A stretch of 64,000 bases of DNA from Puniceicoccales bacterium (GTDB lineage: Bacteria > Verrucomicrobiota > Verrucomicrobiia > Opitutales > LL51). Made by a program: the position numbers and the translations under genes. Within the stretch, counting starts at the first letter, position 1, and each line of letters begins with the position of its first letter. The DNA is taken from NCBI GenBank assembly GCA_031270475.1, contig JAISXO010000018.1:105-64104 (forward strand), read 5' to 3'. Positions 5,108 to 60,953 of this stretch are shown here, piece after piece. Under the pieces are notes generated by a model. The model was given only the letters and a program-made list of their open reading frames with translations, did not search any database and was not told the DNA's origin.

Positions 5108-5365
5108 AGACCTGACACTAAAATAAAAAATGTAACGCCATATTTAGCCATGGGTAAATTGAAATGTACATATCTTTTGTCGTTAAAGGCAATGTTTTTT
5201 GAACAAAACGCTTATGAAATTGCCATTGAACAAAGTGATCTCAACCTAGAGGATGATACGGCAATCCGAGATTTATTAAAAAAATATAATATTTAGTTCG
5301 ATAGTACGGGCAGCAATCGTTATAACAACAGACTCAGAGCACGATTTTTGAGACCTATACCATAG

Positions 5366-6085
5366 CAGGACCAGGTAAACATAGAGAGAACAAAGCCATT
5401 TGACTGTATATTTAGCCTATCCCAGATTCATTTTGCCCAATGGCTCACATCAAAACACTACCCTGTCCATTTTAATGAAACTTCATTTCAAGGCAAAGTG
5501 TCTCCATTGCATTATGAAAAATGGAAGGATGGCGAAATCTGATTAAAACACCAGAAGATTGCCTATAAAACTGTATTCGGAAAACAAATACTCGAGCATG
5601 GACATATCTTTCATCCTCGGCAAAGTATGTTTTTCATCGATGATGGTATTTTTAAGGAATGTATGGAGCAGGTGAAGCGCCTAAAAGAAAATTCTAATAA
5701 TCTCGAAGCTCATACAGCATTTATAAAGGCAATCTCTTGTCCGTTTCAGGGGGCGGACTAGAGATGCTCGTAGACGGTATGGCAAAATATGCCGGCTATA
5801 GGCTCAAACGACCGGAAATTCTCCAAAAAAGCAAGAATAGCATTGGCTCAATTAGGCGAAAGATTTCCTGATAACGATCCTCGAAAACCAGGGAGCCAAA
5901 CGGATATAGGCTATACTATCCGGACTATGGGCTTTGACTTTGAACGAAAAAAGATGAAGAACGCCTCCGGAATTTCTATTGCTATCCCGATGTCTTTGCA
6001 ATGCCCACGACCAGTTTTAAAAAGTTTAATAAGCGATACCAATGTAAATTTGTTCCAATCGAAAGGTAATACTCACCGCAAGTAA
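5366..6085 (+). pseudogene. Decayed gene downstream of the T3S chaperone (one reading frame, internal stops)
   Basis: A single frame (positions congruent to 2 mod 3) stays readable from 5366 to the TAA at 6083-6085. It is interrupted by in-frame stops at 5540-5542, 5759-5761 and 5771-5773. Track ORF 5789..6085 is only its last piece. No recognisable domain. Confidence 0.5.
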
Positions 6086-6156
6086 TTTAAGGAAATATTT
6101 TTTGAACAAATATACTTGATTTTTGCTTGCCGAATAATGTCTTTGCGTCATCATAG

Positions 6157-8643
<2,487 letters not shown>

Positions 8644-14131: not shown

Positions 14132-15286
14132 TTACGCTTCCGCTACAGCGATATTGATTGCTTTCGCTGCTGCTACAGCCGAAGCCCAGGCCCAATGCAG
14201 ATTATAGCCGCCGAGCTCACCTGTAACGTCGACCACTTCGCCAATGAAATACACATCCGGGACGTGTTTTGCTGCCATCGTTTTTGAGGAAAGAAAACGC
14301 GTCGAAACACCACCGCGCGTTACCTCAGCCTTGCGATAGCCAACGACATTCTTCGGAATAAATGTAAATCGTGTCAACTGTCCAATCAGCACATCGATTG
14401 TAGATTTGTCCATATTGGCTAGCGGCATATCGCAATTTTGAGAAAAAATTTTCGCCAAACGTTTTGGCAATAAATCAGCTAAAATGCTTTTTACTTTCCG
14501 ATTTCGATCATTTATAATAACTTTTTTAAAATCAACCCCTGGCAACCAATTGATTTGTAAAGATGTATCCGCCTCCCACCATAGGGACACTGTTAATATC
14601 GCCGGACCGCTAAGACCGTAATGTGTAAATAAAACCTCATCTGTAATGGTACGATTTCCAACGGTTACCGCTGCCGGCAATGAAACTCCGGCTAATTTTG
14701 TAAATTCCTCGCAAATGTCCTTAGGGAAATCTAACCGTACCAATGCAGGCGACAACGGCTCAATCGCCATTCCTAGTTGCTCTGCAAAGCGATAGCCAAA
14801 ATCAGAAATACCAAGCTGCGGACAAGATAAACCTCCCGTCGCAATGACCAAATGTTTACAACAAAAATCAGTTCCGTAATTACTATGAACGATCCACAAT
14901 TCCCCCACACGTTCGATAAAATTAATCGATACGTTAAATATAATATTTACATTAAGCTGTAAATAATCGATCAATTCTTTCACATTTAATAGAAACAATT
15001 TCCCGCAATCGCTCTCCTGATACCCTATCCCAACACTAGCAAAAAGCCCTACCACATCCTTCCAAGAAAATTGCGCTAAAGCAGATTTACAAAAGTGCAC
15101 ATTTTGCGAATAATAATGTTCAAATGCAATGTTCCTATTCGTGCAATTACAATGGCCACCTCCGGAAACCGCTACCTTTCGCGCTGGCCTTTGAGTCATT
15201 TCGAGTACAACACACGTTCCTTTTAAAGATTTTGCACACAATAACCCAGCTGCTCCCGCGCCAACAATGACGGTATCAAAAATCAT
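14132..15286 (-). CDS. HI0933/BaiN-like FAD-dependent flavoprotein
   Basis: FDTVIVGAGAAGLLCA dinucleotide-binding motif, RKVAVSGGGHCNCTN and a C-terminal GEVVDVTGELGGYNLHWAWASA. The start was moved to the internal Met (MIFDTV) so it does not overlap the upstream gene. Confidence 0.75.
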   Translation of the reverse strand: MIFDTVIVGAGAAGLLCAKSLKGTCVVLEMTQRPARKVAVSGGGHCNCTNRNIAFEHYYSQNVHFCKSALAQFSWKDVVGLFASVGIGYQESDCGKLFLLNVKELIDYLQLNVNIIFNVSINFIERVGELWIVHSNYGTDFCCKHLVIATGGLSCPQLGISDFGYRFAEQLGMAIEPLSPALVRLDFPKDICEEFTKLAGVSLPAAVTVGNRTITDEVLFTHYGLSGPAILTVSLWWEADTSLQINWLPGVDFKKVIINDRNRKVKSILADLLPKRLAKIFSQNCDMPLANMDKSTIDVLIGQLTRFTFIPKNVVGYRKAEVTRGGVSTRFLSSKTMAAKHVPDVYFIGEVVDVTGELGGYNLHWAWASAVAAAKAINIAVAEA

Positions 15287-15300
15287 CGCGGCACAAAAGC

Positions 15301-16008
15301 CTAAAAGTTTAATAAAGAAGCAACAACGCACTGATTAGCAGATAGCCCTATCTCTCTCAGTCCATTCATAACAAATTGTACACCCAACGCGACCAAAAAC
15401 AACCCCGACAAACGAAAGCTTAATTTTAGAATCGTTGGCGTCAACCACTTTGCTCCCTTCGATGTCAATACTAAGATGACGTACACCAAGAAAATAGCCA
15501 GCGAAATAGCCAACAGGCAGGAAAGAAACTCTCCTGCACCTTCACTTGCTGCTCGATTGGCGATGATAATGGTCAAAGAACCTGGTCCGGCAATAATCGG
15601 TATAGCCAATGGCGCAATCGCTATGTCTTGACGCTTTTTCTTAGGTAAATTGCCAATTTCTTCGGCCTCATTTTTGGATATCACAATTTCAGGATCTTCC
15701 GCGCGCAACATACCGAACCCAACAAAAACTAACAATAGGCCACCGGCAATATTGAACGCCTCCATGGCAATACCGATTGCCGCAAGAATTTTCGGCCCTC
15801 CTAAAGCAGTCAACACCATGACACTCCAAGCAATTCCGCATGCCATTTTTGCCGTCGTTAAACGTTCCCTAACTGTACAATTCGTAGTCATACTCAGATA
15901 GAGCACAATCACAGCCAATGGACACATCGCCGCAAAAATTTGATAAAAACAATTTACGAAGAAACTATATCCTCCTCCTGTACATATTCCAACAAACAAA
16001 ATATTCAT
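15301..16008 (-). CDS. MarC family (UPF0056) integral membrane protein
   Basis: 235 aa with multiple TM segments. IAIAPLAIPIIAGPGSLTIIIA is typical of MarC-family proteins. Confidence 0.7.
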   Translation of the reverse strand: MNILFVGICTGGGYSFFVNCFYQIFAAMCPLAVIVLYLSMTTNCTVRERLTTAKMACGIAWSVMVLTALGGPKILAAIGIAMEAFNIAGGLLLVFVGFGMLRAEDPEIVISKNEAEEIGNLPKKKRQDIAIAPLAIPIIAGPGSLTIIIANRAASEGAGEFLSCLLAISLAIFLVYVILVLTSKGAKWLTPTILKLSFRLSGLFLVALGVQFVMNGLREIGLSANQCVVASLLNF

Positions 16009-16353
16009 ATTAATAGGTTACGTTTTTCATACACAAATAAGATTTTTAGGAAGTCAATAAAATTCATCATCGCAAAAATCTTTCATGGAATTTCGCCGAG
16101 ATTCTTACATTTTTTTTATTCGGACTCAACACCAACAATTACATATTGCCAACAATAAACCTACCCGATGACATTCAAACAGAACCACCGAGACAATAAA
16201 AACACACAAACATACATAATTCTCGAATCCTAACAAACATTCTTCCGGGAGAATCTCTCCTCCAAATTTCTTCTAAAAAGAGAAACTCCCTTTTATCTTC
16301 CATCTCGAACACTTTACTTTCGCTTCGTGTCCGCACAATAAAGCATTCGCAGA

Positions 16354-17700
16354 TTACTCCATCAGTTTCACCAAGTATATGCGAGGCCACCGAATCTCTA
16401 TTGGTTTACTCTCGACCGAATCTTTTCTTGGAGATCCAAATGGATTCTTACGCTTTGGACTCGGCTCCGGAGTTTTCGATGAGGTATCCGACGTACTTGC
16501 AAGCATGGCTGCTTCTGAACTTTTGGTCGTTTCCGATGGCTGCAACTCCGATAGCTGGGGCTCCGACGACCGGGGATCGATTAATTTCTCCAGTATTTTG
16601 TCATAGACCGCTTTTGCTAAAGCATATCCCGGTCCCTGCAAAGCTAAAACGCTAGGCAAACTATTACTTCCAAGCCTCTGGAACTCGCGAAGCGCCGCTT
16701 GCTTATCTCCTCCCGTTGCCCCTGTTACCCAAGCCAATGTACTTGCAAACTCCATAAATACTCTATTTTTTTCACTATCTGACTGATCACGCCCTATAGC
16801 CTCTAAAAAAATCTTCCCCTGTTCTGCTGGCTCTTCGCTCGCATACAGAGCATCTACTAGTCGATCTCTATCCGTATCCGTGATCTGAGTCTGCTGCTCT
16901 TTTGCACGCTCACGTACCATACGATCCATGACCCACATAACGGCCACAAGCTGGCTGTGTATTACCCCATTAGGATCGGGATTATCGGCACAAACATCGT
17001 CATCCTCCATCCAATCTTTTGCTTTCGGTAGTGGTAACTCATGAAGTTTTGTCAAGTTTTGATATACACAATCACCCTTGGCTTCTAAAATGTTTAAAAG
17101 GGCACTCCGATCATTATTATTGACAACCACTTGCCAATCATCTCGAAACGCCACTACAAATGGTATTAAGTCTTCCGTCAACTTTAATAAGTATAACTCC
17201 TCCTGCTCAGCTTCGGATATCTCCTCCTTCGCGAGTATTTTATCCTCAACTTGCTTAAGCATTCGCTTCATCGGTTGTTTTTTTATATCATCCGGAAGCT
17301 TCTTGCCTCCCGGATTCCAATCTACCCTCCCTGTAACAACTTGACAAAGCTGAACTATGCGGGAAAAATTCAAACTGGAATCGTTTTGTATATCCCATAA
17401 AACAGAAGCTATCTTTTCCACGTTGACTTTAGTGCCATCGGCAAACTCAAGAAATCCCCCTTGAACACCTTGGTGACTAAAATTCTGCACATCGTCAGCG
17501 TCCCATTGCACAAGCTGCACGAGTTGCCGTTGATCCGGATTTGCCGGAACTTCATTTTGTTGGGCTTGCTTTGACGAAGATATTCCATCTGGAACTGACG
17601 GCTGATCCTCATCAGTTGCTAATAACTCTGCGCTACAAGTACATAATAAAGCCAAAGCTAATAACACAATTCCATTTTGAGATTTATCACTCTTATCCAT
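16354..17700 (-). CDS. Hypothetical secreted protein, next gene downstream of sctU
   Basis: Starts at MDKSDKSQNGIVLLALALLCTCSAELLA (signal-peptide-like) and is preceded by GGAGAAGG. Has a Ser/Pro/Glu-rich C-terminal tail. No recognisable domain. Confidence 0.5.
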   Translation of the reverse strand: MDKSDKSQNGIVLLALALLCTCSAELLATDEDQPSVPDGISSSKQAQQNEVPANPDQRQLVQLVQWDADDVQNFSHQGVQGGFLEFADGTKVNVEKIASVLWDIQNDSSLNFSRIVQLCQVVTGRVDWNPGGKKLPDDIKKQPMKRMLKQVEDKILAKEEISEAEQEELYLLKLTEDLIPFVVAFRDDWQVVVNNNDRSALLNILEAKGDCVYQNLTKLHELPLPKAKDWMEDDDVCADNPDPNGVIHSQLVAVMWVMDRMVRERAKEQQTQITDTDRDRLVDALYASEEPAEQGKIFLEAIGRDQSDSEKNRVFMEFASTLAWVTGATGGDKQAALREFQRLGSNSLPSVLALQGPGYALAKAVYDKILEKLIDPRSSEPQLSELQPSETTKSSEAAMLASTSDTSSKTPEPSPKRKNPFGSPRKDSVESKPIEIRWPRIYLVKLME

Positions 17701-17846: not shown

Positions 17847-18926
17847 TCAGTTGAAAACCGCATTTTCTCGGGCTCGCTCGTCTTTGATATCCTTGACCCA
17901 ACGCAAAACTTCTGCAACCGGTGCCATTAAATCCCTCGGAATGTATTCCATGACGCCCGCCGTATCCAATAGCGCGTGTGCTAAAGGTACATTGCGCATA
18001 ATCGGTATCCCTTCCTTTTCCGCAACAGCTATCATTTGTTCCGCAATGATGCCAACTCCTTTCGCAATCACAATCGGTAGGGGAAAGACGGGGCGCTCAA
18101 AATCGTAGAGTAATGCAATTGCGACATGCTCCGGATTCGTGACTAAAGCCGAAGCCTGTTTTGTCTTTTGAGGGGGATCCTCTTCCATCATTTCTTTGTG
18201 AATTTGTTTGCGTTTACTCTTAACCTGCCCATCGCCCTCGGATTCCTTATACTCCCTTTTGACTTCATCTTTACTCATCTTAAGCCCCTCTTTCCACTTG
18301 TATTTCTGATAGGCATAGTCGAGAGCCGCCATTGCAATGTATGCAAAAATGACCATCTTTGCGAAATTAGTCATAATAGGGCCAAGAATACTCAATACAC
18401 CGGATAACTTGCAAAACGGTAATAAAATTAAATCGTCAAATACATCTTTTACAACACCGACCAACAGGAAGCCCAAAAAAATGATTTTTACCGTTGACTT
18501 CAGCAGTTCGACGAGACTTTTCATGGAAAACATCTGCTGCGCCTTTGACATGGGATTAATTTTACTGAGATCGGGCTGTATCGTTTTCGATGTAAATAGG
18601 ATCCCAACCTGTGCAAAATTTCCAATGAGTCCCATGAGTGCTACCACGAAAATCGCTGGGAAAACAATGCCTCCCGTCTTCATCAAAACACTCCAAAGCG
18701 CCTGACCAGTATACCCCCCCAGATCATTACATCGCCCAATAAATTGGGTAGGGATCAAAATCATCTCTGAAATATTCTCTAAATGTTGATTCCAGCCCAA
18801 TCCAACATAACAAAATGCACCGATTAAAGTAAGCGTCGAATTGACGTCCTGACTCTTCGCAATATTTCCTTTATTGCGCGCGTCACGTATACGTTTCGGT
18901 GTTGGATCTTCGGTTTTTTCGCTCAT
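17847..18926 (-). CDS. sctU: Type III secretion export-apparatus switch protein (SctU/FlhB family)
   Basis: 359 aa. Motifs present: N-terminal EKTEDPTPKRIRDARNKGNIAKSQD, four TM segments, MSKDEVKREYKESEGDGQVKSKRKQ, an autocleavage-site variant NPEH, and a C-terminal GIPIMRNVPLAHAL. Confidence 0.9.
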   Translation of the reverse strand: MSEKTEDPTPKRIRDARNKGNIAKSQDVNSTLTLIGAFCYVGLGWNQHLENISEMILIPTQFIGRCNDLGGYTGQALWSVLMKTGGIVFPAIFVVALMGLIGNFAQVGILFTSKTIQPDLSKINPMSKAQQMFSMKSLVELLKSTVKIIFLGFLLVGVVKDVFDDLILLPFCKLSGVLSILGPIMTNFAKMVIFAYIAMAALDYAYQKYKWKEGLKMSKDEVKREYKESEGDGQVKSKRKQIHKEMMEEDPPQKTKQASALVTNPEHVAIALLYDFERPVFPLPIVIAKGVGIIAEQMIAVAEKEGIPIMRNVPLAHALLDTAGVMEYIPRDLMAPVAEVLRWVKDIKDERARENAVFN

Positions 18927-18957
18927 TTATCCCATTCCTTTCACTTGCTATCGCTCC

Positions 18958-19746
18958 CTATTTTAAGAAATGATTAACAAAAAACGACATTTTACTTTGC
19001 GTGAAAAAATAGTAATGGAACAGTTTTCCCAGCAACGAATAATAAAATAGTAAAAAAAACATCGATAGCCAGCTTTTAACCGGCATTGCCATAAAAAACA
19101 CATTTAATTGTGGTGCAAAACGACTGATCATTCCCAAGCCAAACTCCGCAAGAAATAATACGATTAAAATCGGTGCTGAAAAGCAAAAAACGGACTCCAT
19201 AATCTCATCCGCAAACGACATCATAAATGCCGGGAAATTGACGTCAAATGTAGGGAAAAATGTAAATACAGGCCACATAATATAGGACTTATAAATCACG
19301 CCGAGGAAAAATAAAAATCCCCCCATCGAAAAAAACAGCGTTGCAATCATCTGAGTCAAAAAGCTTCCCAAAAGCGATGTCTGCGAACCAACAACGGGAT
19401 CAAATGTCATGGCCTGCGACGACCCTCTCTGAATATCAATAATGAATCCAACACTATCCGTAATATAAAAAATAAATCCCGATAAATAACCCAACATGGC
19501 CCCCAGGATAACCTCCTTGCAGATCGTTACGAAGATAATAAGCACCGGAATCTGTACCGTTGGTAACGTCGGATACACGGCATGGAAAAGGGGTAAGGCC
19601 ATGGCAAAAATGATGACATTGCGTCCCGTCCCCATGATGTATTGCTTGGCAAATACCGGCGTTAATGACAACGCTGCCGCCAAACGTATGATACACATCA
19701 TCATTAAAAATAAAACTGATGTTACTTCCTCTAGTCCCGCTCCCAT
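18958..19746 (-). CDS. sctT: Type III secretion export-gate protein (SctT/FliR family)
   Basis: 262 aa polytopic membrane protein between sctS and sctU. Its start overlaps the sctS stop (ATGA). FliR/YscT-like hydrophobic pattern. Confidence 0.85.
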   Translation of the reverse strand: MGAGLEEVTSVLFLMMMCIIRLAAALSLTPVFAKQYIMGTGRNVIIFAMALPLFHAVYPTLPTVQIPVLIIFVTICKEVILGAMLGYLSGFIFYITDSVGFIIDIQRGSSQAMTFDPVVGSQTSLLGSFLTQMIATLFFSMGGFLFFLGVIYKSYIMWPVFTFFPTFDVNFPAFMMSFADEIMESVFCFSAPILIVLFLAEFGLGMISRFAPQLNVFFMAMPVKSWLSMFFLLFYYSLLGKLFHYYFFTQSKMSFFVNHFLK

Positions 19747-20015
19747 TAATGAATAATCGTTGGAAAATTGGTAAACAGGCTATTGGCAAACGCGAGTAAC
19801 TCATCGCCGATCCAATAGGCCGATAGCATCAAAACCGTAACAGTAAAGAATAGTTTGATGGCAAATCCCAATGTTTGTTCTTGAATCTGGGTAAGGGCTT
19901 GTAACAAGCTCGTTATCAATCCCACACACGTCGCCACTAAAATGGGCGGCATCGATAACATGAGAATGAGTATCATTGCCTGCTCCGTGATACTAATGAT
20001 AAAATTCTGATCCAT
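19746..20015 (-). CDS. sctS: Type III secretion export-gate protein (SctS/FliQ family)
   Basis: LLQALTQIQEQTLGFAIKLFF is the SctS/FliQ signature. The internal Met (MDQNFIIS) gives the usual ~89 aa length; the track ORF extends to 20042. Confidence 0.85.
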   Translation of the reverse strand: MDQNFIISITEQAMILILMLSMPPILVATCVGLITSLLQALTQIQEQTLGFAIKLFFTVTVLMLSAYWIGDELLAFANSLFTNFPTIIH

Positions 20016-20070
20016 ACGCCTAGCCATTGTTTTTTTAGTCAAATTTTCGCAAATAGCAAGCCCTTAAACT

Positions 20071-36593: not shown

Positions 36594-37088
36594 TTAGGCT
36601 CCAAACATCATCATTCCCGGCATACCAATACCGCCATCAGCCGCAATGGCACTTCCTTCGGCTTCGCTATCGGTCATCGCCATCCATTCTTCGAAGCGTT
36701 TCGTATCCCAATGTTCCATTGCACTGACAAATTTCTCTAAAATATTGTAAAAAATATCATTATCAAGCATATTCATATCGCAATATTGTGTCAGTAAAAG
36801 TGTACCATCGGATGGATCGAGCGAAACATTTGCACCGGCCGTATCGCGCCAAAAATGACAACTTTCAAGAATTCCACGGTAAAAAACTGCCTCATCTGCT
36901 GGTAATGCACCGATATAAGCCAAAAAACAAAGTTGTTCTTTTTCAATATCAATGGAACATTTAACAAAATATTTTCCATCAAAAGCAAGATAACAGTCGT
37001 TACTTTCATCCAAGTCCAGTCCTTCGATTTTCAATTTGTCACCAAGTATTTGAACATACGTCCTAAAAGTATCCAAACAATTTTCCAT
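36594..37088 (-). CDS. Type III secretion class I chaperone (CesT-like)
   Basis: Starts at MENCLDTFRTYVQILGDKLKIEGLDLDESNDCYLAFDGKYFVKCSIDIEKEQLCFLAYIGALPAD...VSLDPSDGTLLLTQY...LEKFVSAMEHW. Acidic and about 164 aa. Its stop lies 13 nt upstream of the GNAT start. Confidence 0.65.
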   Translation of the reverse strand: MENCLDTFRTYVQILGDKLKIEGLDLDESNDCYLAFDGKYFVKCSIDIEKEQLCFLAYIGALPADEAVFYRGILESCHFWRDTAGANVSLDPSDGTLLLTQYCDMNMLDNDIFYNILEKFVSAMEHWDTKRFEEWMAMTDSEAEGSAIAADGGIGMPGMMMFGA

Positions 37089-37214
37089 ATTATGTCCCAA
37101 GAATATATTTTTTTCGCAAAAAAACAATCCAAAATTTAACAATGATATTTATTCTTTAAAAATATATCCATCGATTTAAAATAAATTTAATTTAAAATTT
37201 TCACCATCAAGGAA

Positions 37215-39465: not shown

Positions 39466-41616
39466 TTAATGGGGCAACTCTAAGAATAATGACATGTTCG
39501 ATTCACTTCGACACTTTGGAAGTTGCACAGGTTTTGCAGCTCCTGCTGCCTCTCTCATTTTTAAAATAGTACGCGGTGACCGATGGATCGTAGCTTCGTC
39601 ATCGGAATGTCCCATATAGACTTCCGGCAAAGGTCCTCTCGTACTCATTTCCGAATATAATATCGGATACTGATTGGTCCTCACGATTTCGCCATTCATT
39701 AGCGCAAGATTTAAATTCCGAGATGGTAAAAATTTATCAAACAATTTCGCCTGAAAACCATTAGCTCCCGAACCAAAATGTAAATATACAATCAACGAAA
39801 TGCCTCCCAATCGAATCATCCCCATACCATCAGTATCAACATTTCTGGATTCTAGCATTCTCTGAAATTCCGGATCAAAATCAAAGGTGGATTCAATGGG
39901 GGAAGAGCAACAACAACAACAACAGCATAAATAACGTTTTAGACATTCCCAGCATCCACCAGGATTGCTTCCGCCGTTTCCAGCATTTAGCAAGTCAAAC
40001 GCCGTATCAACAAGGGAAATGATGTTAAAACGTCCCTGCGATGAGAACATAACCGTATTGCCATAAATATTATCGACAACTAGATCGAGTATGGCACAAG
40101 TTTCCTCATTGAGCTGAATTTCATGGGGAAATAGGTCACCACGACAAATTCTTTGAATGTCTTCCCAATCATAATCCAATAAAAAGGGAAGGTCCGTAAA
40201 ATGTGATTCCACGTCAATGCTATGCCTTTGACGATATAGATCGAGTGCCTTGTTGCATAAATCGACAACTCCCTCCGGATTAATCCGCTCATAGGTAAAA
40301 TGTTGATGTGCCAACAGATGTTTAATCTCATCCCAACAAATGATCAATTCCGGATTTTCAGGCAAAATCCAATGTTGATCATCATCCATATCAAAGGCAC
40401 TAGGATTAATGCATGCCTTAAGAAAATTAAATAAAAACATGCGATGATTATAGGCAATTTCCGAACAAATACCGCGATGCAATACATCTCTCGCCGAATC
40501 ACATGCCAAATATCCCAACGTTCTGTAGCCGTGTAAACAAGCCATCGTGACGACATCACGAAAAGCAAAATGATTAATCATATTTTCGTGACCAACAAAC
40601 GCATTGTAATTATCTACCGTTGTTTGATCGGCGGCAATACGTGGAGCTGATAGGAAATATCCAAAAAATCGTGGTGTTCTAATGTTATCGATAAACTCAG
40701 GAATCGCATCTTTAAATTGATTAATAATGAGTGGCAAAGCAATCTGCGCTAATCCGCCCCCCTGACTATGGCCCGTCACAACAAAACGAATATTACTCCG
40801 TTCATCTTCCGGGATTTGGTCTATGGCATTTTGAATACTTGTAAAAAGCGGATAAATAAAATCTAGATCCTCCCGCGATTGCAAAGGATTACTAATCTTG
40901 CCTTCGTCAACCATCGCTTCCAATACATCTCGAGACAAATTACAGGAGTTTATTTTAGCCAGGTAGCCCGCATGCACTGCTCCTTCAAATCCATACAACT
41001 CCGGATCGACTTCCATTGGGCTTGCATCATAATTTGTCGCCCAACTCGCACTAAATGCTCCCGATCCCGGCTGAAAATCTTCCCCTTGGCTCCCGCGAAA
41101 TACAGTAACGATGACGGGATATTGCCCATTCTTTAGAATAGCAACGTACCCTGCCAAATCGATTTCCGGAGAAAATCTCCCTAGCGTAAACATTTCCAAA
41201 GAGACATTTAACGCATTTCCGAGATGTGAACCTTCTCTAAGATTTCCATGTATACCGGTAAAATTTCGATCACAATTATACTCGTGATCGGTCTCCGAAA
41301 CATTAAATTCTTGATCGCCCGACAATAACAAACATTCATTGCGAAATTTGCCATTACCTTCCGAGTCTTTTTCCCGTTTCGTAATGGTATAACTACGCTT
41401 AATCAAATGTAGCAAATCGGGCTGCATTGCTCTAAACCACGATGCAACGTGAAATCCATCCCTATCTCTACGAACCAAGGAATGGGGAACTTCCATTTGC
41501 AACGACGACGCAGCATACGGCAATCTATCGCCAAATTCAAAATCGCTATCATTCGATGATCCACATCCCCACGCTCCCAGGCATGCCATCAATCCTATAC
41601 TAATCATTTCCTTCAT
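39466..41616 (-). CDS. Lipase class 3-like alpha/beta hydrolase lipoprotein with poly-Cys tract
   Basis: Starts near MKEMISIGLMACLGAWGCGSS (lipobox). The nucleophile elbow is FVVTGHSQGGGLAQIA. The C-terminal region has LCCCCCCCSS. Confidence 0.65.
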   Translation of the reverse strand: MKEMISIGLMACLGAWGCGSSNDSDFEFGDRLPYAASSLQMEVPHSLVRRDRDGFHVASWFRAMQPDLLHLIKRSYTITKREKDSEGNGKFRNECLLLSGDQEFNVSETDHEYNCDRNFTGIHGNLREGSHLGNALNVSLEMFTLGRFSPEIDLAGYVAILKNGQYPVIVTVFRGSQGEDFQPGSGAFSASWATNYDASPMEVDPELYGFEGAVHAGYLAKINSCNLSRDVLEAMVDEGKISNPLQSREDLDFIYPLFTSIQNAIDQIPEDERSNIRFVVTGHSQGGGLAQIALPLIINQFKDAIPEFIDNIRTPRFFGYFLSAPRIAADQTTVDNYNAFVGHENMINHFAFRDVVTMACLHGYRTLGYLACDSARDVLHRGICSEIAYNHRMFLFNFLKACINPSAFDMDDDQHWILPENPELIICWDEIKHLLAHQHFTYERINPEGVVDLCNKALDLYRQRHSIDVESHFTDLPFLLDYDWEDIQRICRGDLFPHEIQLNEETCAILDLVVDNIYGNTVMFSSQGRFNIISLVDTAFDLLNAGNGGSNPGGCWECLKRYLCCCCCCCSSPIESTFDFDPEFQRMLESRNVDTDGMGMIRLGGISLIVYLHFGSGANGFQAKLFDKFLPSRNLNLALMNGEIVRTNQYPILYSEMSTRGPLPEVYMGHSDDEATIHRSPRTILKMREAAGAAKPVQLPKCRSESNMSLFLELPH
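39907..39927 (-). repeat. Trinucleotide repeat encoding seven consecutive Cys
   Basis: The minus strand reads TGC TGT TGT TGT TGT TGT TGC, in frame with the lipase-like gene. Confidence 0.95.
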
Positions 41617-41960
41617 ATACATCCTTCTAATTGAATGACCTAAGCATAGCATGTGAATTTATTTTTACAACATATTTATGCAAAAAAATAAATATAAGAA
41701 AAACTTATTAAAATTATTAAAATATCCCCCATCTGAGTCATTGAGATACTTTTAATACAAATGCGATTGGCAAAAATTCGCCATTTATAAAATCATAAAA
41801 AACACGGAGTAATAGATATATTCAAACCGGTAAGCTCGAAAACATCTTCGAAACTTACCGGCCCAACAAGATAGAAAAGTATATATAAAACAAAAATACC
41901 GACACTATATGCCGTACCTTTCTGGATTACGGAAAACTTATCGAAATGCAAGAAAAAAAA

Positions 41961-48570: not shown

Positions 48571-49323
48571 AAGCCTTAAGACAATTTGAGCCATCCCTAA
48601 AAGCAATACAGATATTGCTCGCTTCCACTAATATTCACGTTAATCTGCCAGATAAGCAGGGAGAAACGCTATTGGTTGTTTTCGAACGGGCGGGAACGTC
48701 TCGAAAAAATAAAGAGTATGTTACTTGATGCTGGTGCACAGGAAACCGCCGATATACCGGAAGCCGAAGCCCCAATAGAAGAAGACACTGATGTATTGGA
48801 AGAAAAAGACGATGAAATGTCATCACTTCATGATCTATGTGATAGGAACCCATCCGATTTCGATTTCTCCAAAATAATACCGTTAATCAGAAACGGCACG
48901 CTGTTCGAGCAAGTAGATGAAGAAAAACAAATGAAATTGCAACAAATGCTTAATCAAGCGCGCGATCAATATGGGAATTCGCTTTTACATCGAGTTATAA
49001 TAATGGAATCGGTTCCCCTATTAAAAACATTGGTTGATTTTGGTCTCGACGTTAATATGAAAGGAAGGCAATCCCGTACACCTTTACACGGAATTTTAAT
49101 GCATCGTAATCCATCGCTAGAAATAATATCGACATTGCTTAGCGTTCCTGATATCGCGGTTAACTTGCCAGATGAAAATAACGAAACTCCATTAGCTCTC
49201 TATAGGAGAATGCAAAGTCTTTATAGGCAAACGCAAGATTCCCCTAATCAGAAAGAAATAGACGATCAGAAAAATAGAGTTCCTATTGCTTGATGCTGGC
49301 GCACAGGACTACTAAGGAGTGGT
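48571..49323 (+). pseudogene. Ankyrin-repeat gene, apparently disrupted (track ORF 48676..49293 is its largest piece)
   Basis: ANK motifs appear in three frames. Upstream there is ILLASTNIHVNLPDKQGETLLVVFERAG, then a stop. The main ORF begins mid-repeat (KIKSMLLDAGAQE) and contains GNSLLHRVI...GLDVNMKGRQSRTPLHG...VNLPDENNETPLAL. Just past its stop, another frame reads LLDAGAQDY. Confidence 0.5.
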
Positions 49324-50489: not shown

Positions 50490-51332
50490 ATGAGTAAAAA
50501 TTATTATATTAAAAATAGATTACTAAAAAATATCGCACTCGGAATCTTTTTTCCGGGCATTTTTGTGGGAAGTACCGATGCCAGTTTCAGCCAAGCTCAG
50601 AAGCATCGTACTGCCGCAAAACCGCCAGATATGGAACTATCACTCGAGGAACGATCACTCAACGAGGAGCTATTTCAGGCCCTAAAAGAGTCAGAGCCGG
50701 ATCTTGGCAAAATAGAACAATTGCTCGCCCAAGGTGCCAATCCTGACGCACGAAATCAATACAACGATACCCCATTGTTTCATGCAAAAAATGCAGAAAT
50801 AACTGCCCTACTACTCAATGCGGGAGCTAACGCTGACGCACGAAATGACTGCAACAATACCCCATTGTTTCATGCAGAGAATGCAGCAATAACTGCCCTA
50901 CTACTCAATGCGGGAGCCGACGTAGACGCACGAAATCAATACAACGATACCCCATTGTTTCATGCAAAGAATGCAGAAATAACTGACCTACTACTTAATG
51001 CGGGAGCTGACGTAAACGCACAAAGTAACTTGGGCGATACTCCATTACATGTTGCTTTATATCATTTTCAAAAAGACCCAAAACAGATAGAAAAATTATT
51101 GCAAAGAGGCGCAAAAATAGACGTAGCAAGCCGATCTGTAGACCATCCAAAAGGCAATACGCCATTGTTTATAGTACAATGGGCCGCCCAAAAAGGCCTT
51201 CGAAGGCTTCGCACCAGTCTCTTCCCTCATACTCCTTACAAACTGACCGATGACACTCGCATAGCATACGCTAAACTTCTACCGCTATTTTTTCTCCCTC
51301 CTAATCTCTGGCAGAACTTGAATAGCAATTAA
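50490..51332 (+). CDS. Ankyrin-repeat protein with N-terminal signal-like segment
   Basis: 280 aa. IALGIFFPGIFVGSTDASFS leader, followed by repeated DARNQYNDTPLFHAKNAEITALLLNAGA units. Confidence 0.8.
   Translation: MSKNYYIKNRLLKNIALGIFFPGIFVGSTDASFSQAQKHRTAAKPPDMELSLEERSLNEELFQALKESEPDLGKIEQLLAQGANPDARNQYNDTPLFHAKNAEITALLLNAGANADARNDCNNTPLFHAENAAITALLLNAGADVDARNQYNDTPLFHAKNAEITDLLLNAGADVNAQSNLGDTPLHVALYHFQKDPKQIEKLLQRGAKIDVASRSVDHPKGNTPLFIVQWAAQKGLRRLRTSLFPHTPYKLTDDTRIAYAKLLPLFFLPPNLWQNLNSN
50745..51014 (+). repeat. Intragenic 90-bp (30-codon) tandem repeats, 3 units
   Basis: GACGCACGAAAT recurs at 50745, 50835 and 50925. Units 1 and 3 are nearly identical at the DNA level. Confidence 0.9.
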
Positions 51333-52677: not shown

Positions 52678-53856
52678 CTATATTTTATCAAATTCATTGA
52701 TCGTTGTAATACCGTCGCGAACATTTTCAGCAGCGACTTTTTTCAACGATACGAGACCATTTTTAACGGCAAGTGCGTGCAATGCATCCAACGGTAAACG
52801 TTTGCGAATGCTATCGCGAATATTAAGTGCCAACGGCAACCATTCGTAAATGCCAAAACGCCCCTTATATCCCTTCCCATCACACTGGGCACAACCACGA
52901 CCATGATAGACTTTTGTAATGCCATAAGGTTCAAGTTTCTCTATGTCCTCATTCGTCATGGGCATTTCTCCTTTACAATTTGAACAAATACGCCGTAAAA
53001 GACGCTGCGCTATAATTCCCTTTACCGTATCCGCAATCAGGTAGGGATCAATTTCCATGTCGACAAGCCGCGTCACTGCACTAGGCGCATCGTTGGTGTG
53101 TAGCGTTCCCAACACGAGATGTCCCGTCAATGCCGCTTGAATTGCAATTTTTGCCGTAATTGTATCGCGCAACTCACCGACGAGAATTTTATCGGGATCG
53201 TGACGTAAAAAAGCACGCAAAGCACTTTCAAATGTTAGGCCAACGTCGTCCCGAACATTAACTTGCACCATACCCTCGGTTTCGTATTCAACGGGATCCT
53301 CAACGGTCACGATTTTCGTTTCCTCATCATTAATTTCATTGAGCGCACTGTAGAGCGTCGTCGTTTTACCGCTCCCCGTTGGACCCGTCGTCAAAATAAT
53401 CCCCGAACCAGAGTTCAATGCTTGGCGAAATTCCACCAAAATTTCTGGCGAAATACCGATCTCATCCAAATTAAAATGCCACGAACCCTGATCTAAAACG
53501 CGTAATACAATGCTTTCACCGTACTGCGTGGGCAAAGTGGAAACACGGAAATCGACGGAACGTCCCAAACAAGTACGTTCGATGTGACCATCTTGTGGAA
53601 GGCGTTTTTCGGCGAGGTCGAGGGCAGCAAGTGTTTTGACGCGGGAGATAATTGCATCGCCAAGGCTACGTTCTGGAGCTGGCAATTCCACGAGTACACC
53701 ATCGATGCGTAAGCGAATGAGAACACTATTGGCAAACGTTTCGAAGTGAACATCAGACGCTCCTTTTTTGACGGCATATTCGAGCACATGGTCTACAAAA
53801 CGTATGATAGGAAACTCCGTATCTTCCGGCATAATCTTTCGCATTGAATCTAACAA
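52678..53856 (-). CDS. GspE/PilB-family secretion ATPase (short form, no N1 domain)
   Basis: 392 aa. Walker A is TTGPTGSGKTTT. Also has VEDPVEYE, ILVGELRD, LVLGTLHTNDAP and the tetra-Cys motif CSNCKG...CAQCDGKGYKGR. Confidence 0.85.
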   Translation of the reverse strand: MLDSMRKIMPEDTEFPIIRFVDHVLEYAVKKGASDVHFETFANSVLIRLRIDGVLVELPAPERSLGDAIISRVKTLAALDLAEKRLPQDGHIERTCLGRSVDFRVSTLPTQYGESIVLRVLDQGSWHFNLDEIGISPEILVEFRQALNSGSGIILTTGPTGSGKTTTLYSALNEINDEETKIVTVEDPVEYETEGMVQVNVRDDVGLTFESALRAFLRHDPDKILVGELRDTITAKIAIQAALTGHLVLGTLHTNDAPSAVTRLVDMEIDPYLIADTVKGIIAQRLLRRICSNCKGEMPMTNEDIEKLEPYGITKVYHGRGCAQCDGKGYKGRFGIYEWLPLALNIRDSIRKRLPLDALHALAVKNGLVSLKKVAAENVRDGITTINEFDKI

Positions 53857-54008: not shown

Positions 54009-56033
54009 TCAATTCCATTCAGTACTTGATTCTTGCGGATCTCCTTCAGTACTGGAATTTTTTATATCTTCGCGAATGAGACTTGTTTTCAGCATTATGT
54101 CTTCCAGTCTAACCTCATTATCATTAGGTTTTATGCTTTTGATGATATCTTCCGCTAAAAGTTTACTATCTAATATATTATTCTGTAATATCTTTACTTG
54201 TTTTTCCAATTCTTCCGTTTCTTTGTGCAGTTGCTCATAAGCTATTTGCTTCTCGGCGACGTCTTCGCTACTGTTTATTTTTGCTTCTGCAAGAGCCACT
54301 CTGGCTTCCGCCTTTTGTTTTTGCAATTCATGCAATTGGAGACGCTTTTCCTTTAATTCCGCCACTCCACTTCTCACCACTTCTTGGAGTTTAGGCAAAA
54401 CTCTTTCAAATTTGTTGCCACTGATCTCTTGTCCTTTTTTTAGTAGCTCCGGCGATACTTCCGTCACAAATTTACGAGCTGCAGAACGATTTTCTACCAT
54501 TCGATCGAATATATCTGAGGTCAATCTTACCTTTCCTGCTTCTTCCGGAAGAACAATACTATTAATGGCATCATCACTATATTCCCCTCCATGATCTCTC
54601 CGTTGTACGTCTGGAAGTTTAGTCAATTCCGCTTTCGCTTTAGTTAATTCCTCTTCAAGTTCTTTCTGTTTCTCCTTTTTAGCTACCTCCGCTGCTTTGG
54701 TCTCCGCTGTTATCGCTTTCATTTCGGGACTTGCGTCATCTTCCTCACTCCATCCACTTTGCATTTTTAATGCGTCATCTAATTCATCGCTTGCCCCCTC
54801 TTTTGGAACAAATAGTAACGGTCCTTCTCTGGCTGCTTCTGGAGTTGTATTTTCCGTTTGCGAGGTTGGTTTTTGGTCAACTTTCTTCAATTTAATTACA
54901 TGGATCGCATCGACAGTTACACCTTCACCTCCTGTTGGTGCCTCTCTACGTGGTGGTGACGGCGATTTCGGTATACTGGCCGCAGTGTCGTCAGACGTCG
55001 GCATTTTGGAAATCTTTCCCGGAGGAGGAGGCGGTGGTGGCGGTGGCGGTGGCGGTGCACCTGCTTTTACTTCTTCGGCTAGATCAGGCTGCGCAACTGG
55101 CTTCCCTAACCCCACAGATCCCGCTACAGTATCAGACGTCGATAATTTAGGCGGGGTTCCTGGCAGTGAAACTGGATTTGATGCCGTTGCTTCCGATTGT
55201 GGTTTTTCAAAGAATTTGCCCAAAAATGCAAATTCATTTTCTTGATGGTTATTTTTAATGATGTCTATCGCTGATCTATCGCTGCCAACTGACGTACTTA
55301 AAATCGCCTTTAATGCTTCCTCATCATCTTTAAAAGCATCGGCTACGCTTTTCAAAATATCAGCATTTCCCCTGGTAGCAGCTAAAGCAATCGGTGTCAA
55401 CCCTACACTCCCACGATGTAATAAGGCGTCCCTTAAAGCTTCTTTATCATCTTTAAGATTTTTTACAATAGTCTCAAAAATAGCAATGTTTTCATGGGTA
55501 GCAGCACAGACCAGCGGTGTATCGCCTGTGCTATCTTCTCCAGTTAGAACTGTTTTCAATGTTTCTTTATTACCTTGACAGCCATCAACCGCAGCATTGA
55601 AAATAGCCGTTTGGTCATTGGATGCAGACCATGTCAATAGTGTCTGACCGCCACCGAGACCTCCTATATGTTGCCCTAGAATTTCTGCTACGCCTTCCGG
55701 ATGGACATTCTTTAAGGTATTCCTTGTCATCTCGGGAGTTACGTTCCAATTCTGAACCGCTTTGGCTAACTGTTGGCTTTTCGCCTGAACCATTTCAGGA
55801 GACGCATTGCGTTCGCCACTTCCCCGGACCTGAGATCCTTCTCCCATCTGTCCTTTAATTTTTACGTGTTTCGTCCTCAAAGTATTACTAGACCCTCCGA
55901 ACAAAAACAGCCCAACTGCGCACATCCCTTGTTTAAAACCCAAACTACCAACTTCATCTTTACCTTGACGAGCTATGTCGCGACATAGATCCCATCGGCT
56001 TAAGTTAGTACAATCATTTTGTATTCCACTCAT
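54009..56033 (-). CDS. Candidate secreted effector: ankyrin-like repeats, 12-Pro tract, WH2-like motif, acidic Trp patch, coiled coil
   Basis: 674 aa with no signal peptide. ANK-like units cover residues ~130-260 (GDTPLVCAATHENIAIFETIV, GLTPIALAATRGNADILKSV). Other elements are P327-P338, VDAIHVIKLKKVDQ (375-387) and SDELDDALKMQSGWSEEDD (415-433). The C-terminal ~230 aa is Glu/Lys-rich and heptad-like. Confidence 0.6.
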   Translation of the reverse strand: MSGIQNDCTNLSRWDLCRDIARQGKDEVGSLGFKQGMCAVGLFLFGGSSNTLRTKHVKIKGQMGEGSQVRGSGERNASPEMVQAKSQQLAKAVQNWNVTPEMTRNTLKNVHPEGVAEILGQHIGGLGGGQTLLTWSASNDQTAIFNAAVDGCQGNKETLKTVLTGEDSTGDTPLVCAATHENIAIFETIVKNLKDDKEALRDALLHRGSVGLTPIALAATRGNADILKSVADAFKDDEEALKAILSTSVGSDRSAIDIIKNNHQENEFAFLGKFFEKPQSEATASNPVSLPGTPPKLSTSDTVAGSVGLGKPVAQPDLAEEVKAGAPPPPPPPPPPPPGKISKMPTSDDTAASIPKSPSPPRREAPTGGEGVTVDAIHVIKLKKVDQKPTSQTENTTPEAAREGPLLFVPKEGASDELDDALKMQSGWSEEDDASPEMKAITAETKAAEVAKKEKQKELEEELTKAKAELTKLPDVQRRDHGGEYSDDAINSIVLPEEAGKVRLTSDIFDRMVENRSAARKFVTEVSPELLKKGQEISGNKFERVLPKLQEVVRSGVAELKEKRLQLHELQKQKAEARVALAEAKINSSEDVAEKQIAYEQLHKETEELEKQVKILQNNILDSKLLAEDIIKSIKPNDNEVRLEDIMLKTSLIREDIKNSSTEGDPQESSTEWN
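55020..55055 (-). repeat. Twelve consecutive proline codons (CCN)12
   Basis: The plus strand reads GGAGGAGGAGGCGGTGGTGGCGGTGGCGGTGGCGG, in frame with the gene at 54009..56033. Confidence 0.95.
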
Positions 56034-56080: not shown

Positions 56081-56476
56081 TCAGTTTTCCGGCAATTCCA
56101 TATGACGTTTAAGAGACTGCTCTGGGACACAGGCACCGTTACCCATTGAACCTTTCGTCGCACCAGAAGGCTTACCCGCTCCAATTTTCAATCCACCAAA
56201 TAGACCACTTTTAGGTACCGGATTGGCCACCAATACATCTTCCGCTGGTGCTGTTTCCTGCAGCTCATCTGTTTTTTGATGCTCGGGAAGCGAACGCCCT
56301 TGAACGGCACTTTCTCCACCTAATGCCGATGCCGATTTTTTTAAATCGGAAGTTGCTTGAACAATTTTGCCTTTGAATGCTGTCGTATGAATTCCATCGG
56401 TATCAACTGAAAGCTCAGTATTATCAACTTTTGGATTGTATATCGGAGCAGGATTCGAATCTAAGTTTATCCCCAT
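56081..56476 (-). CDS. Hypothetical protein upstream of the ANK/poly-Pro gene
   Basis: 131-aa ORF on the same strand, 47 nt upstream of the next start. No recognisable motif. Confidence 0.35.
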   Translation of the reverse strand: MGINLDSNPAPIYNPKVDNTELSVDTDGIHTTAFKGKIVQATSDLKKSASALGGESAVQGRSLPEHQKTDELQETAPAEDVLVANPVPKSGLFGGLKIGAGKPSGATKGSMGNGACVPEQSLKRHMELPEN

Positions 56477-59864: not shown

Positions 59865-60953
59865 TTAGAAAATATCGGCAAATAACGTTTCCTCATTTAT
59901 CATTTCATCGGACCAGAGTGATCCATCCGTGGCCATCCGCGATAGATAACTTATAAAAATTACAAATATAAAGTTTTCCTCTCGTTTTCCATGTAGATTC
60001 GGCCATAATCGCAATACTTGTCTCAACTCATCTGGAGAAAGAATTTCCCGAACGCGGCCAAATATCTGATGGCATTCATCGATCATCTTCTTCTCGCCAT
60101 CACCGGCCTCGTGGTTTCTTCCAGAAATGAATGCTCCAATTGTTGCAATAAAACCTGATAGCTTTTTGTCTATAAGTTTTGCTACGTCTTTCGCAACAGC
60201 TGGAACTACCAGCCCCGGAGCGAAGCCTTCAGCTTGTCCTGTGGACATTTGAGCAATTATCTGCGATCGAAATTGAGATATATTCTCATTGGGCAATTGG
60301 GCAACTATTCGTTCAACTTTTGTTCGCAGCGCATCATTTATTCCGGATGCCTCATACCGTTGGTATGAATCCTCGGAATCTTCGGAATCCTCGGAATCCT
60401 CAACCTCTCGTCGTGAACTGCCAACCCTACGCCGTTGGTATAGGGCATTGGGATCCTCAATCTCTCGCTGTAAATCCGTAATTTGTTGCCGCAAAGCCTG
60501 ATTTTCTTTTTTAAGATCATCATTCTGTAAGCGGAAGTTCATGGCCGCATCCTGACCTTCTCCCCATTTGAGTGCCGTTTGGGCCTCTTGCTCTTTAAGT
60601 CGCCTCTGTAATCGTTGATTTTCATTTTCCAGCTCTGAGATTCGCTTTTGCAATGCCGCACAACTATCTCTGTATTTTCCAAATACGGGCTCCAAACTTT
60701 TCTTTAAAGCATCATAGAAAGCGAATGGCTTCGCTATTACTTTACGCCCATCGATTACTTTATCTTCTGTGTCGAGAATATCTCGGATGTTTTTTCGGAT
60801 AACATCTAAAACTTCTCTCTCCAGGAAAGAATCCTCCAAGCGAACACAACTGGATTGGGCATTTTCCTGACTAGATCCCCAAACAGAGCTATTCACATAT
60901 AAAAAACCTGTACATATAAGCACACATCTCAACGTATCGTTATTTTTTTTCAT
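59865..60953 (-). CDS. Hypothetical secreted coiled-coil protein
   Basis: 362 aa. Signal-like MKKNNDTLRCVLICTGFLYVNSSVWG, long heptad-like Gln/Glu/Arg-rich segments, and EDSEDSEDSEDS from a 9-bp repeat near 60370-60400. Confidence 0.5.
   Translation of the reverse strand: MKKNNDTLRCVLICTGFLYVNSSVWGSSQENAQSSCVRLEDSFLEREVLDVIRKNIRDILDTEDKVIDGRKVIAKPFAFYDALKKSLEPVFGKYRDSCAALQKRISELENENQRLQRRLKEQEAQTALKWGEGQDAAMNFRLQNDDLKKENQALRQQITDLQREIEDPNALYQRRRVGSSRREVEDSEDSEDSEDSYQRYEASGINDALRTKVERIVAQLPNENISQFRSQIIAQMSTGQAEGFAPGLVVPAVAKDVAKLIDKKLSGFIATIGAFISGRNHEAGDGEKKMIDECHQIFGRVREILSPDELRQVLRLWPNLHGKREENFIFVIFISYLSRMATDGSLWSDEMINEETLFADIF

Follow-up and report, generated by a model that had tools for sequence, protein, structure and literature searches.

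The 64,000-nucleotide stretch of DNA analyzed here (the window) comes from a Puniceicoccales (Verrucomicrobiota) bacterium and contains, on the minus strand at 54009..56033, a gene for a 674-amino-acid (aa) protein that we assign, from sequence comparison, to a new bacterial family of WAVE-derived, putatively Arp2/3-targeting effectors. The module in question consists of a poly-proline (polyPro) run followed by V (a WH2 motif), C (a helix) and A (an acidic region with a Trp), as in the eukaryotic WASP-family proteins. The family-level finding is of real interest; the copy in the window is degenerate, and its activity is uncertain. A first-pass annotation had ascribed a WASP-like layout to this protein. 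Descent from a genuine polyPro-V-C-A is borne out by canonical versions at the same locus in related genomes, but the internal module has degenerated here, and the annotation, although the elements it described exist, overlooked a second, better-preserved C-A at the extreme C-terminus. The gene and the parts of its product are as follows.

54009..56033, minus strand: candidate effector gene, taken from the list of open reading frames (ORFs), 674-aa ORF plus stop codon, intact over 674 codons.
55824..56033, minus strand: family-specific N-terminal region, residues 1-70 (MSGIQN..LSRWDLCR..GLFLFGG), delimited by conservation with relatives.
55224..55649, minus strand: ankyrin repeats, approximately residues 129-270, from Pfam Ank_2 (26.6 bits), phmmer and an AlphaFold 2 (AF2) model.
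55020..55055, minus strand: poly-proline run P327-P338, 35 residues upstream of the WH2-like stretch.
54873..54920, minus strand: degenerate WH2, residues 372-387, VTVDAIHVIKLKKVDQ, with LKKV retained, from the family alignment.
54735..54824, minus strand: internal C-A relic, residues 404-433, the positional equivalent of the internal C-A of P0008 and P0003.
54138..54728, minus strand: helical region, residues 436-632, with a helix-loop-helix (539-586 / 592-632), from AF2 and the family alignment.
54012..54113, minus strand: C-terminal C-A, residues 641-674, VRLEDIMLKTSLIREDIKNSSTEGDPQESSTEWN, from profile scores, R654 and a predicted helix.

Relatives of this protein (P numbers; loci and contigs carry L numbers) are few and fast-evolving. 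The indexed collections do not contain the protein itself. Neither the whole protein nor its residues 362-674 retrieved a relative in word-index homology searches, in the former case probably because the candidate list was saturated by Pro and coiled-coil words, and a metagenome scan with the coiled-coil alignment gave no match, so that an exhaustive search was required. Among 1.84 billion representatives, it identified only about 10 true (non-ankyrin) relatives (P0001, P0002, P0003, P0008, P0009, P0015, P0030, P0055 and P0063), all of them singletons from JGI, ENA or Logan metagenomes or from Puniceicoccales metagenome-assembled genomes (MAGs); P0001, P0002 and P0003 match the window protein at E = 1e-41 to 1e-46. 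The neighboring T2SSE-type ATPase (52678-53856) retrieved nine loci from Puniceicoccales MAGs, at 67-93% identity. The effector gene lies upstream of this ATPase gene in a conserved locus, where L001, L013 and L014 share the order HtrA-like protease, anti-sigma factor, extracytoplasmic function (ECF) sigma factor, small conserved ORF, effector, T2SSE ATPase and M42 peptidase. Between genomes, the effector is 38-41% identical and the adjoining ATPase 90-93% identical. The window protein shares with the family the N-terminal 70 aa, the helical core and the position between the ECF sigma factor and small ORF on one side and the T2SSE ATPase on the other. In L003 and L004, the same position holds a gene with a different N-terminal part of about 600 aa and the same kind of C-terminal module.

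Canonical modules are present in L001, L003, L004, P0001-P0003 and P0008, and homologues carry 9-31 consecutive Pro at the position equivalent to the proline run. The module of L001 reads ...PPPPPPPPPPP...KTHLDLIKEKAFQLKKIPP...EEDSFWG and that of P0003 AINAIKKGLKKV...VGGLLQKAFKERDQSSD...SGSDWDADF; P0008 has HLDLIKNGDFKLKKVD...LTLQDALQQAASTREAVAVVSDSNESESGNDSPSSWD, with two WH2 motifs ahead of LTLQDALQQAASTREAVAVVSDSNESESGNDSPSSWD, and the tail of L004 runs ...LDLIKTAQSNLKKVD...LTLQDILQKAAAIREAVAVSDSDESDSEKSESTAW up to its stop codon. Six family members extend over this region; all six keep LKK, and five keep the internal acidic Trp. At least one acidic Trp occurs in every full-length member, internal only in L001, P0001, P0003 and P0008, terminal only in P0002, and in both places in the window protein.

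The bacterial modules match WASP-family proteins of known structure. Eight bacterial V-C-A segments were combined into a profile, which was run against the 177,635 distinct sequences of the PDB; of its 10 matches at E <= 10, eight were WASP-family chains. N-WASP constructs reached 1.4e-9 and 1.1e-6 when their tandem WH2s were summed, and full-length N-WASP reached 9.5e-5, one stretch of 24.1 bits covering V, C and A (independent E value, 3.3e-4). The remaining chains were N-WASP C-A chimeras, the WAVE2 WH2, and WAVE1 at 0.038, its Trp aligned on the family Trp. When the window sequence and P0088, an unrelated protein described below, were left out of the profile, the N-WASP VCA was matched at 19.7 bits (E = 0.008 at PDB size). 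A profile was needed for this result, as a single canonical VCA searched against the PDB with phmmer yielded only noise, and a profile restricted to closely similar VCAs detected human VCAs less sensitively than the diverse profile did, probably owing to overfitting. Pfam WH2 was the top match, at scores below its cut-off of 23.1 bits, for a protist WAVE tail (P0106, 15.3 bits) and for P0088 (17.8 bits).

Lower-termite guts are full of cellulolytic flagellates. The source bacterium is related to MAGs from such guts: the MAGs of its relatives carry labels of the series in which Gsp477 and Ncb351 stand for the lower termites Glyptotermes and Neotermes cubanus (PMC11707648), and the ‘Nucleococcus cluster’ Verrucomicrobia are nuclear and cytoplasmic endosymbionts of termite-gut flagellates (PMC8204192). 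A search with the module profile returned eight short proteins (P0105-P0112), all ending in Trp, and a metagenome scan two loci (L015 and L016). The eight were considered as further bacterial family members and rejected, given that context and GC content point to fragments of protist SCAR/WAVE, an assignment made directly for P0106, P0107, P0110 and P0111 and by similarity for the remainder. P0106, P0107 and P0111 lie on eukaryote-like contigs; that of P0106 has 65% GC, and its ORF extends upstream into a WAVE-type basic region, and P0111 adjoins an Exo84-like gene. On L015 (a 76-kb contig, 35% GC), an intron-free gene at 4777-6285, flanked by centrin-like and NSUN2-like genes, encodes a 502-aa SCAR/WAVE-like protein with, in order, a WAVE-homology-like N-terminus, three Pro runs, two WH2 motifs, C, and A ending in SSYSW at the stop codon. 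Its N-terminus is in register with the WAVE homology domain of human WAVE1, which is its second-best PDB match at only 12.7 bits. L016 carries at 66-1160 an intron-free WASP gene (WH1, PBD, polyPro and WH2) adjoining an Arf GTPase gene. The genes on L015 and L016 are, in their own right, useful reference sequences for the actin machinery of uncultured flagellates.

The tail of L004 is 74% identical (53/72) to P0106 and 59% identical to the L015 WAVE, and the internal module of P0008 is 62% and 54% identical to the same two; for reference, human N-WASP and the L015 WAVE are 33% identical. A profile from protist WAVE tails alone, searched against 1645 six-frame ORFs from the window and 12 loci, retrieved exactly the syntenic effector genes, namely, those of L004 (5e-32), P0008 (approximately 1e-31), L002 (2e-9), L001 (4.5e-5) and L003 (0.002). 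The window ORF came next at E = 0.033 (whole protein, among the 1645 ORFs), and the match that followed was noise (E = 3). SCAR/WAVE with the WAVE homology domain is ancestral in eukaryotes, parabasalids encode WASP along with many homologues of WAVE, of which some have coiled coils and two WH2 domains, and A regions typically have a Trp as their last or near-last residue (PMC3298513). Taken at the level of sequence, the module was most likely captured from flagellate SCAR/WAVE genes and is not convergent. Because SCAR/WAVE is ancestral in eukaryotes and present in many copies in parabasalids, the direction of transfer is read as eukaryote to bacterium. A chimeric assembly is unlikely because six independent assemblies place the gene between the same bacterial flanks. 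The first-pass proposal of RickA- or ActA-style mimicry gives way accordingly to capture of a host-lineage WAVE module as the best explanation of the resemblance, at 54-74% identity for the best bacterial copies.

The WASP-family class I nucleation-promoting factors are defined by a proline-rich region followed by V-C-A (PMC3298513), and in the window protein a proline-rich region stands directly N-terminal to V. Recomputed coordinates place P327-P338 (PPPPPPPPPPPP) exactly at 55020-55055; the twelve Pro codons are a mixture of CCG, CCA and CCT and form no simple slippage repeat. The LKKV segment VDAIHVIKLKKVDQ is present, although it spans residues 374-387 (54873-54914) and had been placed one residue off, at 375-387. 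The acidic Trp patch SDELDDALKMQSGWSEEDD (SDELDD..GWSEEDD) occupies residues 415-433 (54735-54791), with W428 correctly identified and retained and with 8 of its 19 residues being D or E. In the family alignment, the WH2 remnant VTVDAIHVIKLKKVDQ corresponds to THLDLIKEKAFQLKKI of L001 and DDAINAIKKGLKKV of P0003, and L382, K383, K384 and W428 are invariant with respect to the syntenic L001 orthologue. Judged by this alignment, the internal module is a degenerate relic in which the WH2 is shortened, the C helix lost, and LKK and the acidic Trp kept; compared with protist SCAR/WAVE, it is 29% identical, which is not significant. The AF2 model, a single-sequence prediction of low confidence (overall predicted local distance difference test score, pLDDT, 46.9) used here for secondary structure and for the lack of a confident fold, has only a 6-residue helix (418-423) in the internal C-A relic. 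It leaves residues 262-417 and the tail outside any confident folded domain, which speaks against burial of the motifs.

The better-preserved terminal C-A of the window protein, LEDIMLKTSLIREDIKNSSTEGDPQESSTEWN, follows the helical hairpin, and the protein ends in ...DPQESSTEWN, with W673 as the penultimate residue. This segment is the best-scoring stretch of the protein with every profile (7.2-15.2 bits overall and 7.2-14.7 bits with the family VCA profile); with the profile made from protist SCAR/WAVE only, it scores 8.4 bits over C and A and is aligned to the protist WAVE C. Its putative C helix, LEDIMLKTSLIREDI, coincides with a predicted helix (643-662, AF2), and R654 is invariant in nine sequences. 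The segment aligns with the terminal C-A of P0002 (...LSLEDINKRKAEIRKQITDSGSSESGEIEESANNW), P0009 (...ESTVW) and L002 (...LGDIMAKAAAIREDVAASDSSEAEESDYNSDDQWQKQD), each of which runs to the stop codon. As the L002 tail matches the internal-VCA profile at 9.4e-7, the terminal C-A appears to be a duplicate of the captured C-A. A terminal Trp is found in four of the nine family members.

Two further proteins carry comparable elements. At L012 8001-9224, P0104 (representative P0088) is an unrelated 403-407-aa protein with polyPro, WH2, a C helix (ALKGVLAKRRNDIQDD) and DEGKDEDWLD, for which Pfam WH2, at 17.8 bits, is the sole match. The contig looks bacterial (38% GC; PhdYeFM/PIN, PGI, poly(A) polymerase and arginase as neighbors), and this protein may be an independent bacterial bearer of a VCA. 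In L004, a second protein (14422-16557, minus strand) has a hydrophobic N-terminus, ankyrin repeats, about 10 degenerate repeats (PMSLANEGYDDEGGAFPTIEQGAISR) and a tail ending in ...HESDSSTEW at the stop codon; in these genomes, such a tail of Ser and acidic residues closed by a Trp may be a portable element.

Outside the V-C-A elements, the protein combines family-specific and inserted parts. The start codon of the 674-aa ORF is backed by N-terminal conservation with L001 from residue 1, at 50% identity over 72 aa, and the N-terminal region is also found in P0002, P0030 and P0063, the latter two annotated as Puniceicoccales proteins. This region (residues 1-70) has no match in Pfam and is a candidate secretion or chaperone-binding region; direct reading of the N-terminus found no hydrophobic Sec-type stretch, in agreement with the initial reading that the protein has no Sec signal. 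The ankyrin-like repeats seen upstream of the module were recovered as a marginal Pfam Ank_2 match (residues 129-192, slightly below the cut-off of 27.3 bits), and the exhaustive phmmer search found about 90 proteins matching residues 129-270 (best E = 3e-24), three sampled examples of which (P0004, P0005 and P0010) are ankyrin-repeat proteins by Pfam. AF2 predicts paired short helices across this segment, which is an insertion missing from the orthologues L001 and P0002 in the alignment. Downstream of the module, AF2 predicts long helices at 436-470, 539-586 and 592-632, consistent with the coiled coil first proposed there, with pLDDT of 84-92 for residues 560-620. The helical region is the most conserved block (ELKEKRxQLHxLQ..AKVALAEAK) among nine sequences and forms the conserved core of the family. 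No WH1, PBD or other WASP/WAVE N-terminal regulatory domain was found by Pfam in the 674-aa protein; because it has neither WH1 nor a WAVE homology domain, it is to be classified as a bearer of a WASP-family module that stands outside the eukaryotic WASP and WAVE families.

The first-pass annotation had also placed the gene in a region with type III secretion system (T3SS) parts and chaperones, and these are indeed present in the window, together with other candidate host-directed proteins.

17847..20042, minus strand: SctU, SctT and probable SctS, the presumed delivery route.
36594..37142, minus strand: CesT-family type III chaperone (Pfam CesT, 60.8 bits; weak SicP match).
56081..56476, minus strand: small ORF of 131 aa directly upstream of the effector gene, with counterparts in the same place in L001, L013 and L010.
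48676-49293, 50490-51332, 39466-41652 and 59865-60953: further candidate host-directed proteins (two ankyrin-repeat proteins, a 728-aa class-3 lipase-like protein and a 362-aa coiled-coil protein).

SctU (TIGR01404, 368.1 bits, cut-off 358) and SctT (TIGR01401, 206 bits, cut-off 163), both NCBIfam equivalogs, lie within 17847-19746, and the ORF at 19746-20042 is SctS-like by sequence. These three genes adjoin housekeeping genes (PrmC and TrmD) and form no complete T3SS island; T3SS apparatus genes appear to be scattered in the genome. SctD-, needle- and HrpB1-type genes are found at a distance of 4-8 kb from the homologue P0008, and the family members are probably secreted by the type III route. 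The 131-aa upstream ORF and its counterparts share the motif GG[LM][FL]GG[FL]KIG[AS]GK; it has no match in Pfam or NCBIfam and is no obvious type III chaperone. The two additional ankyrin-repeat proteins, the 728-aa protein with its class-3 lipase-like domain and the coiled-coil protein are all encoded within 15 kb of the effector. With its T3SS genes, CesT chaperone, and ankyrin, lipase-like and coiled-coil proteins, the gene content of the window is typical of bacteria that manipulate eukaryotic cells.

On balance, though by no wide measure, we favor the interpretation that the window protein is an exported effector that engages the host Arp2/3 complex through WAVE-derived C-A and acidic-Trp elements, and these bacteria probably manipulate host actin through this complex. 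From the sequence anatomy, synteny, family membership, similarity to the WASP-family and protist WAVE VCAs, and T3SS genes described above, we infer secretion, Arp2/3 binding, activation and biological purpose along the following lines. The family would belong to Puniceicoccales living together with lower-termite-gut flagellates. A VCA captured from a flagellate SCAR/WAVE gene would have been fused to a bacterial N-terminal region, the module being followed, in the window lineage, by the helical hairpin and a duplicate of the C-A. Once inside a host cell, such a protein would bind the Arp2/3 complex by its acidic-Trp motifs and C helix, recruit profilin-actin by its proline run and supply an actin monomer by its WH2, which the weakened WH2 of the window copy may or may not do. 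Branched actin assembly would then be triggered wherever the N-terminal region and the ankyrin repeats target the protein. The window copy most likely still engages Arp2/3 through its two acidic-Trp sites, and its delivery of actin monomers is doubtful. The two-site model of Arp2/3, with two C-A sites per complex, is established, and the two C-A sites flanking the helical hairpin suggest bivalent binding to both. More tentatively, and as a possibility we rate well short of probable, the combination of a host WAVE VCA tail, a T3SS-exported N-terminus and a duplicated C-A could make a built-in ‘dimeric’ Arp2/3 activator that occupies both sites and builds host actin for entry, positioning or, if the bacterium is of the Nucleococcus type, nuclear access.

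Several results weigh against this interpretation. Profiles of C-A only, searched against the PDB or human WASP/WAVE C-A, gave no significant match, because of which the C-A claim rests on motif features, full-length V-C-A alignments and the protist WAVE comparison. Pfam WH2 gave no match for the bacterial homologues L001, L003 and L004, and Pfam and NCBIfam gave no WH2 match for the window protein. The distance from the helix to LKKV in the window protein is two residues shorter than in P0003 and about four shorter than in L001, in line with the shorter-than-canonical spacing given in the first-pass annotation, and the remnant goes unrecognised by the family and protist-WAVE profiles (0.8-6.5 bits). 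The internal C helix is unrecognisable by alignment and profiles, the terminal A region has merely four acidic residues among the last 16, and the AF2 model is, as noted, of low confidence overall. Other copies are decaying. At L010 7283-8918 (the P0008 gene, also on L011), a TGA stands at a conserved Trp codon, between DPNR and DLCC, in the N-terminal family domain upstream of the called gene, and a frameshift follows ahead of the Pro runs; this copy looks like a pseudogene or an internal restart. UGA recoding at L010 is the less likely reading, as SecA on the same contig uses TGG and has no internal stop. In the WH2-bearing gene at L003 6904-9741, a stop at 9220-9222 separates the first WH2 from the second; the piece downstream of this stop retains a C-A with a terminal Trp (...ESSSTAW) at its end. 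L001 and P0001 have no terminal acidic Trp.

These points bear most directly on the possibility that the window protein is the decayed relic of a WAVE-derived nucleation-promoting ancestor whose activity has been lost, its ankyrin repeats and coiled coil now acting on another host target or the gene nearing pseudogenisation. The shortened, profile-invisible WH2, the lost internal C helix, an ankyrin insertion unique to the window copy, and the broken or truncated copies of L010, L003, L001 and P0001 all fit such an outcome, but the ORF is intact over its 674 codons, LKK, W428, R654 and the penultimate Trp are kept at the positions they have in relatives, and the terminal C-A is still the best match of the window to the protist WAVE profile. 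We regard loss of activity as unlikely, although it is the alternative to be taken most seriously.

A lesser chance attaches to an Arp2/3 binder that does not activate the complex and acts by tethering or competitive inhibition, in the manner of Arpin or of the acidic DDW motif of cortactin. In those eukaryotic regulators, an acidic stretch with a Trp binds Arp2/3 alone, without activating it, and Arpin inhibits the complex. The retention of two acidic-Trp motifs next to a degenerate WH2 and internal C, with the A motifs of the window protein better kept than its V and C, agrees with this comparison. Arpin and cortactin differ in that they have no polyPro-WH2 context, and the window protein retains LKKV and, in its terminal module, a C-type helix with the invariant Arg, while its close relatives have complete V-C-A; we consider binding without activation improbable.

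Still less probable is an Arp2/3-independent nucleator or monomer binder, in which WH2 and polyPro would be dimerised by the coiled coil. VopL/VopF of Vibrio and TARP of Chlamydia offer the precedent, being T3SS-delivered proteins with proline-rich stretches, WH2 motifs and an oligomerisation element, and the window protein has polyPro, a WH2 and a potentially dimerising helical hairpin, with two WH2 domains in some relatives. Those proteins, however, nucleate actin independently of Arp2/3 and lack a C-A that carries an acidic terminal Trp, whereas the window protein has a single degenerate WH2 together with C-A modules and so does not qualify as a WH2-array nucleator. Such a nucleator would have no need of the conserved C helix or the acidic terminal Trp, both of them hallmarks of Arp2/3 binding, and the module derives, by the comparisons above, from SCAR/WAVE.

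Chance resemblance among low-complexity Pro, Lys-rich and acidic stretches is very improbable: the motifs are short, of the shuffles of residues 339-674 (n = 20,000), 8% contained an LKKV-like motif and 36% an acidic Trp of any kind, and Pfam WH2 finds no match, but the modules show positional homology to canonical ones in syntenic orthologues, the profiles of the family and of protists connect them with N-WASP and WAVE, and the ordered combination (LKKV-like, then an acidic Trp 20-70 aa later) arose in only 0.54% of shuffles. As the pattern was picked after being seen, the shuffle test is suggestive only, and it is conservation in the aligned relatives, not shuffle statistics, that is decisive in placing the motifs beyond chance.

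Among known systems, the WAVE-derived effectors proposed here are closest to protist SCAR/WAVE, as represented by the 502-aa L015 protein and the Trichomonas vaginalis WAVE homologues (PMC3298513). The two share the order of polyPro, one or two WH2 motifs, C, and a Ser/Asp/Glu-rich A ending in Trp, with near-verbatim HLDLIKxGxFKLKKVD and LTLQDILQKAAxIREAV and the 54-74% identity of the best bacterial copies. The bacterial proteins differ in having their own N-terminal regions and no WAVE homology domain; the family to which the window protein belongs adds the helical hairpin and second C-A, and the window copy the ankyrin repeats. Imitation of the WASP family is known from a few animal pathogens and from Rickettsiales (RickA, wBm0076, ActA and BimA), with obscure origins of the modules; the window protein would resemble these in function, by offering WASP-type elements to Arp2/3. 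ActA of Listeria and BimA of Burkholderia thailandensis are Arp2/3 activators that imitate the acidic, WH2 and C elements of WASP and have proline repeats; both are surface-anchored and serve comet-tail motility, and the order of elements differs in ActA. There is no sign of surface anchoring in the window family, and none of host-gene capture in ActA and BimA. ActA has been cited as a bacterial Arp2/3 case (PMC6160203), and RickA of Rickettsia and wBm0076 of Wolbachia are WAS(p)-like bacterial proteins (PMC6160203, citing Gouin et al. 2004). Like the family described here, RickA and wBm0076 come from bacteria of intracellular habit, combine a proline-rich region with a C-terminal WH2-C-A, and are known or proposed activators of host Arp2/3. 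They belong to another phylum and protein family, and no homology beyond the module is known, although the sequences were not directly compared; the window family is further set apart by its presumed T3SS route, the C-A duplicated across a coiled coil and a eukaryotic donor lineage that can be traced.

Searches of the literature turned up no description of a WH2 or VCA protein from Verrucomicrobia or from symbionts of termites, and we know of no effector biology for Verrucomicrobiota or for the termite-gut flagellate symbiosis. Compared with the known bacterial cases, what is new is the phylum, hosts that are termite-gut protists, the presumed T3SS route, the duplicated C-A and a recognizable eukaryotic donor lineage. 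With its donor visible, in protists from metagenomes of the kind that yielded the bacterial modules, the family would clearly exemplify how an actin-regulatory module was captured by bacteria from eukaryotes. A single locus displays complete W-W-C-A, single WH2, loss of C, duplication of C-A, ankyrin insertion, and decay by nonsense and frameshift mutations, and these evolutionary stages amount to a natural experiment on which VCA elements are dispensable. The presence of two C-A modules per chain leads to the testable idea of bivalent Arp2/3 engagement, and the family offers a molecular handle on the interaction of uncultured protist symbionts with their hosts.

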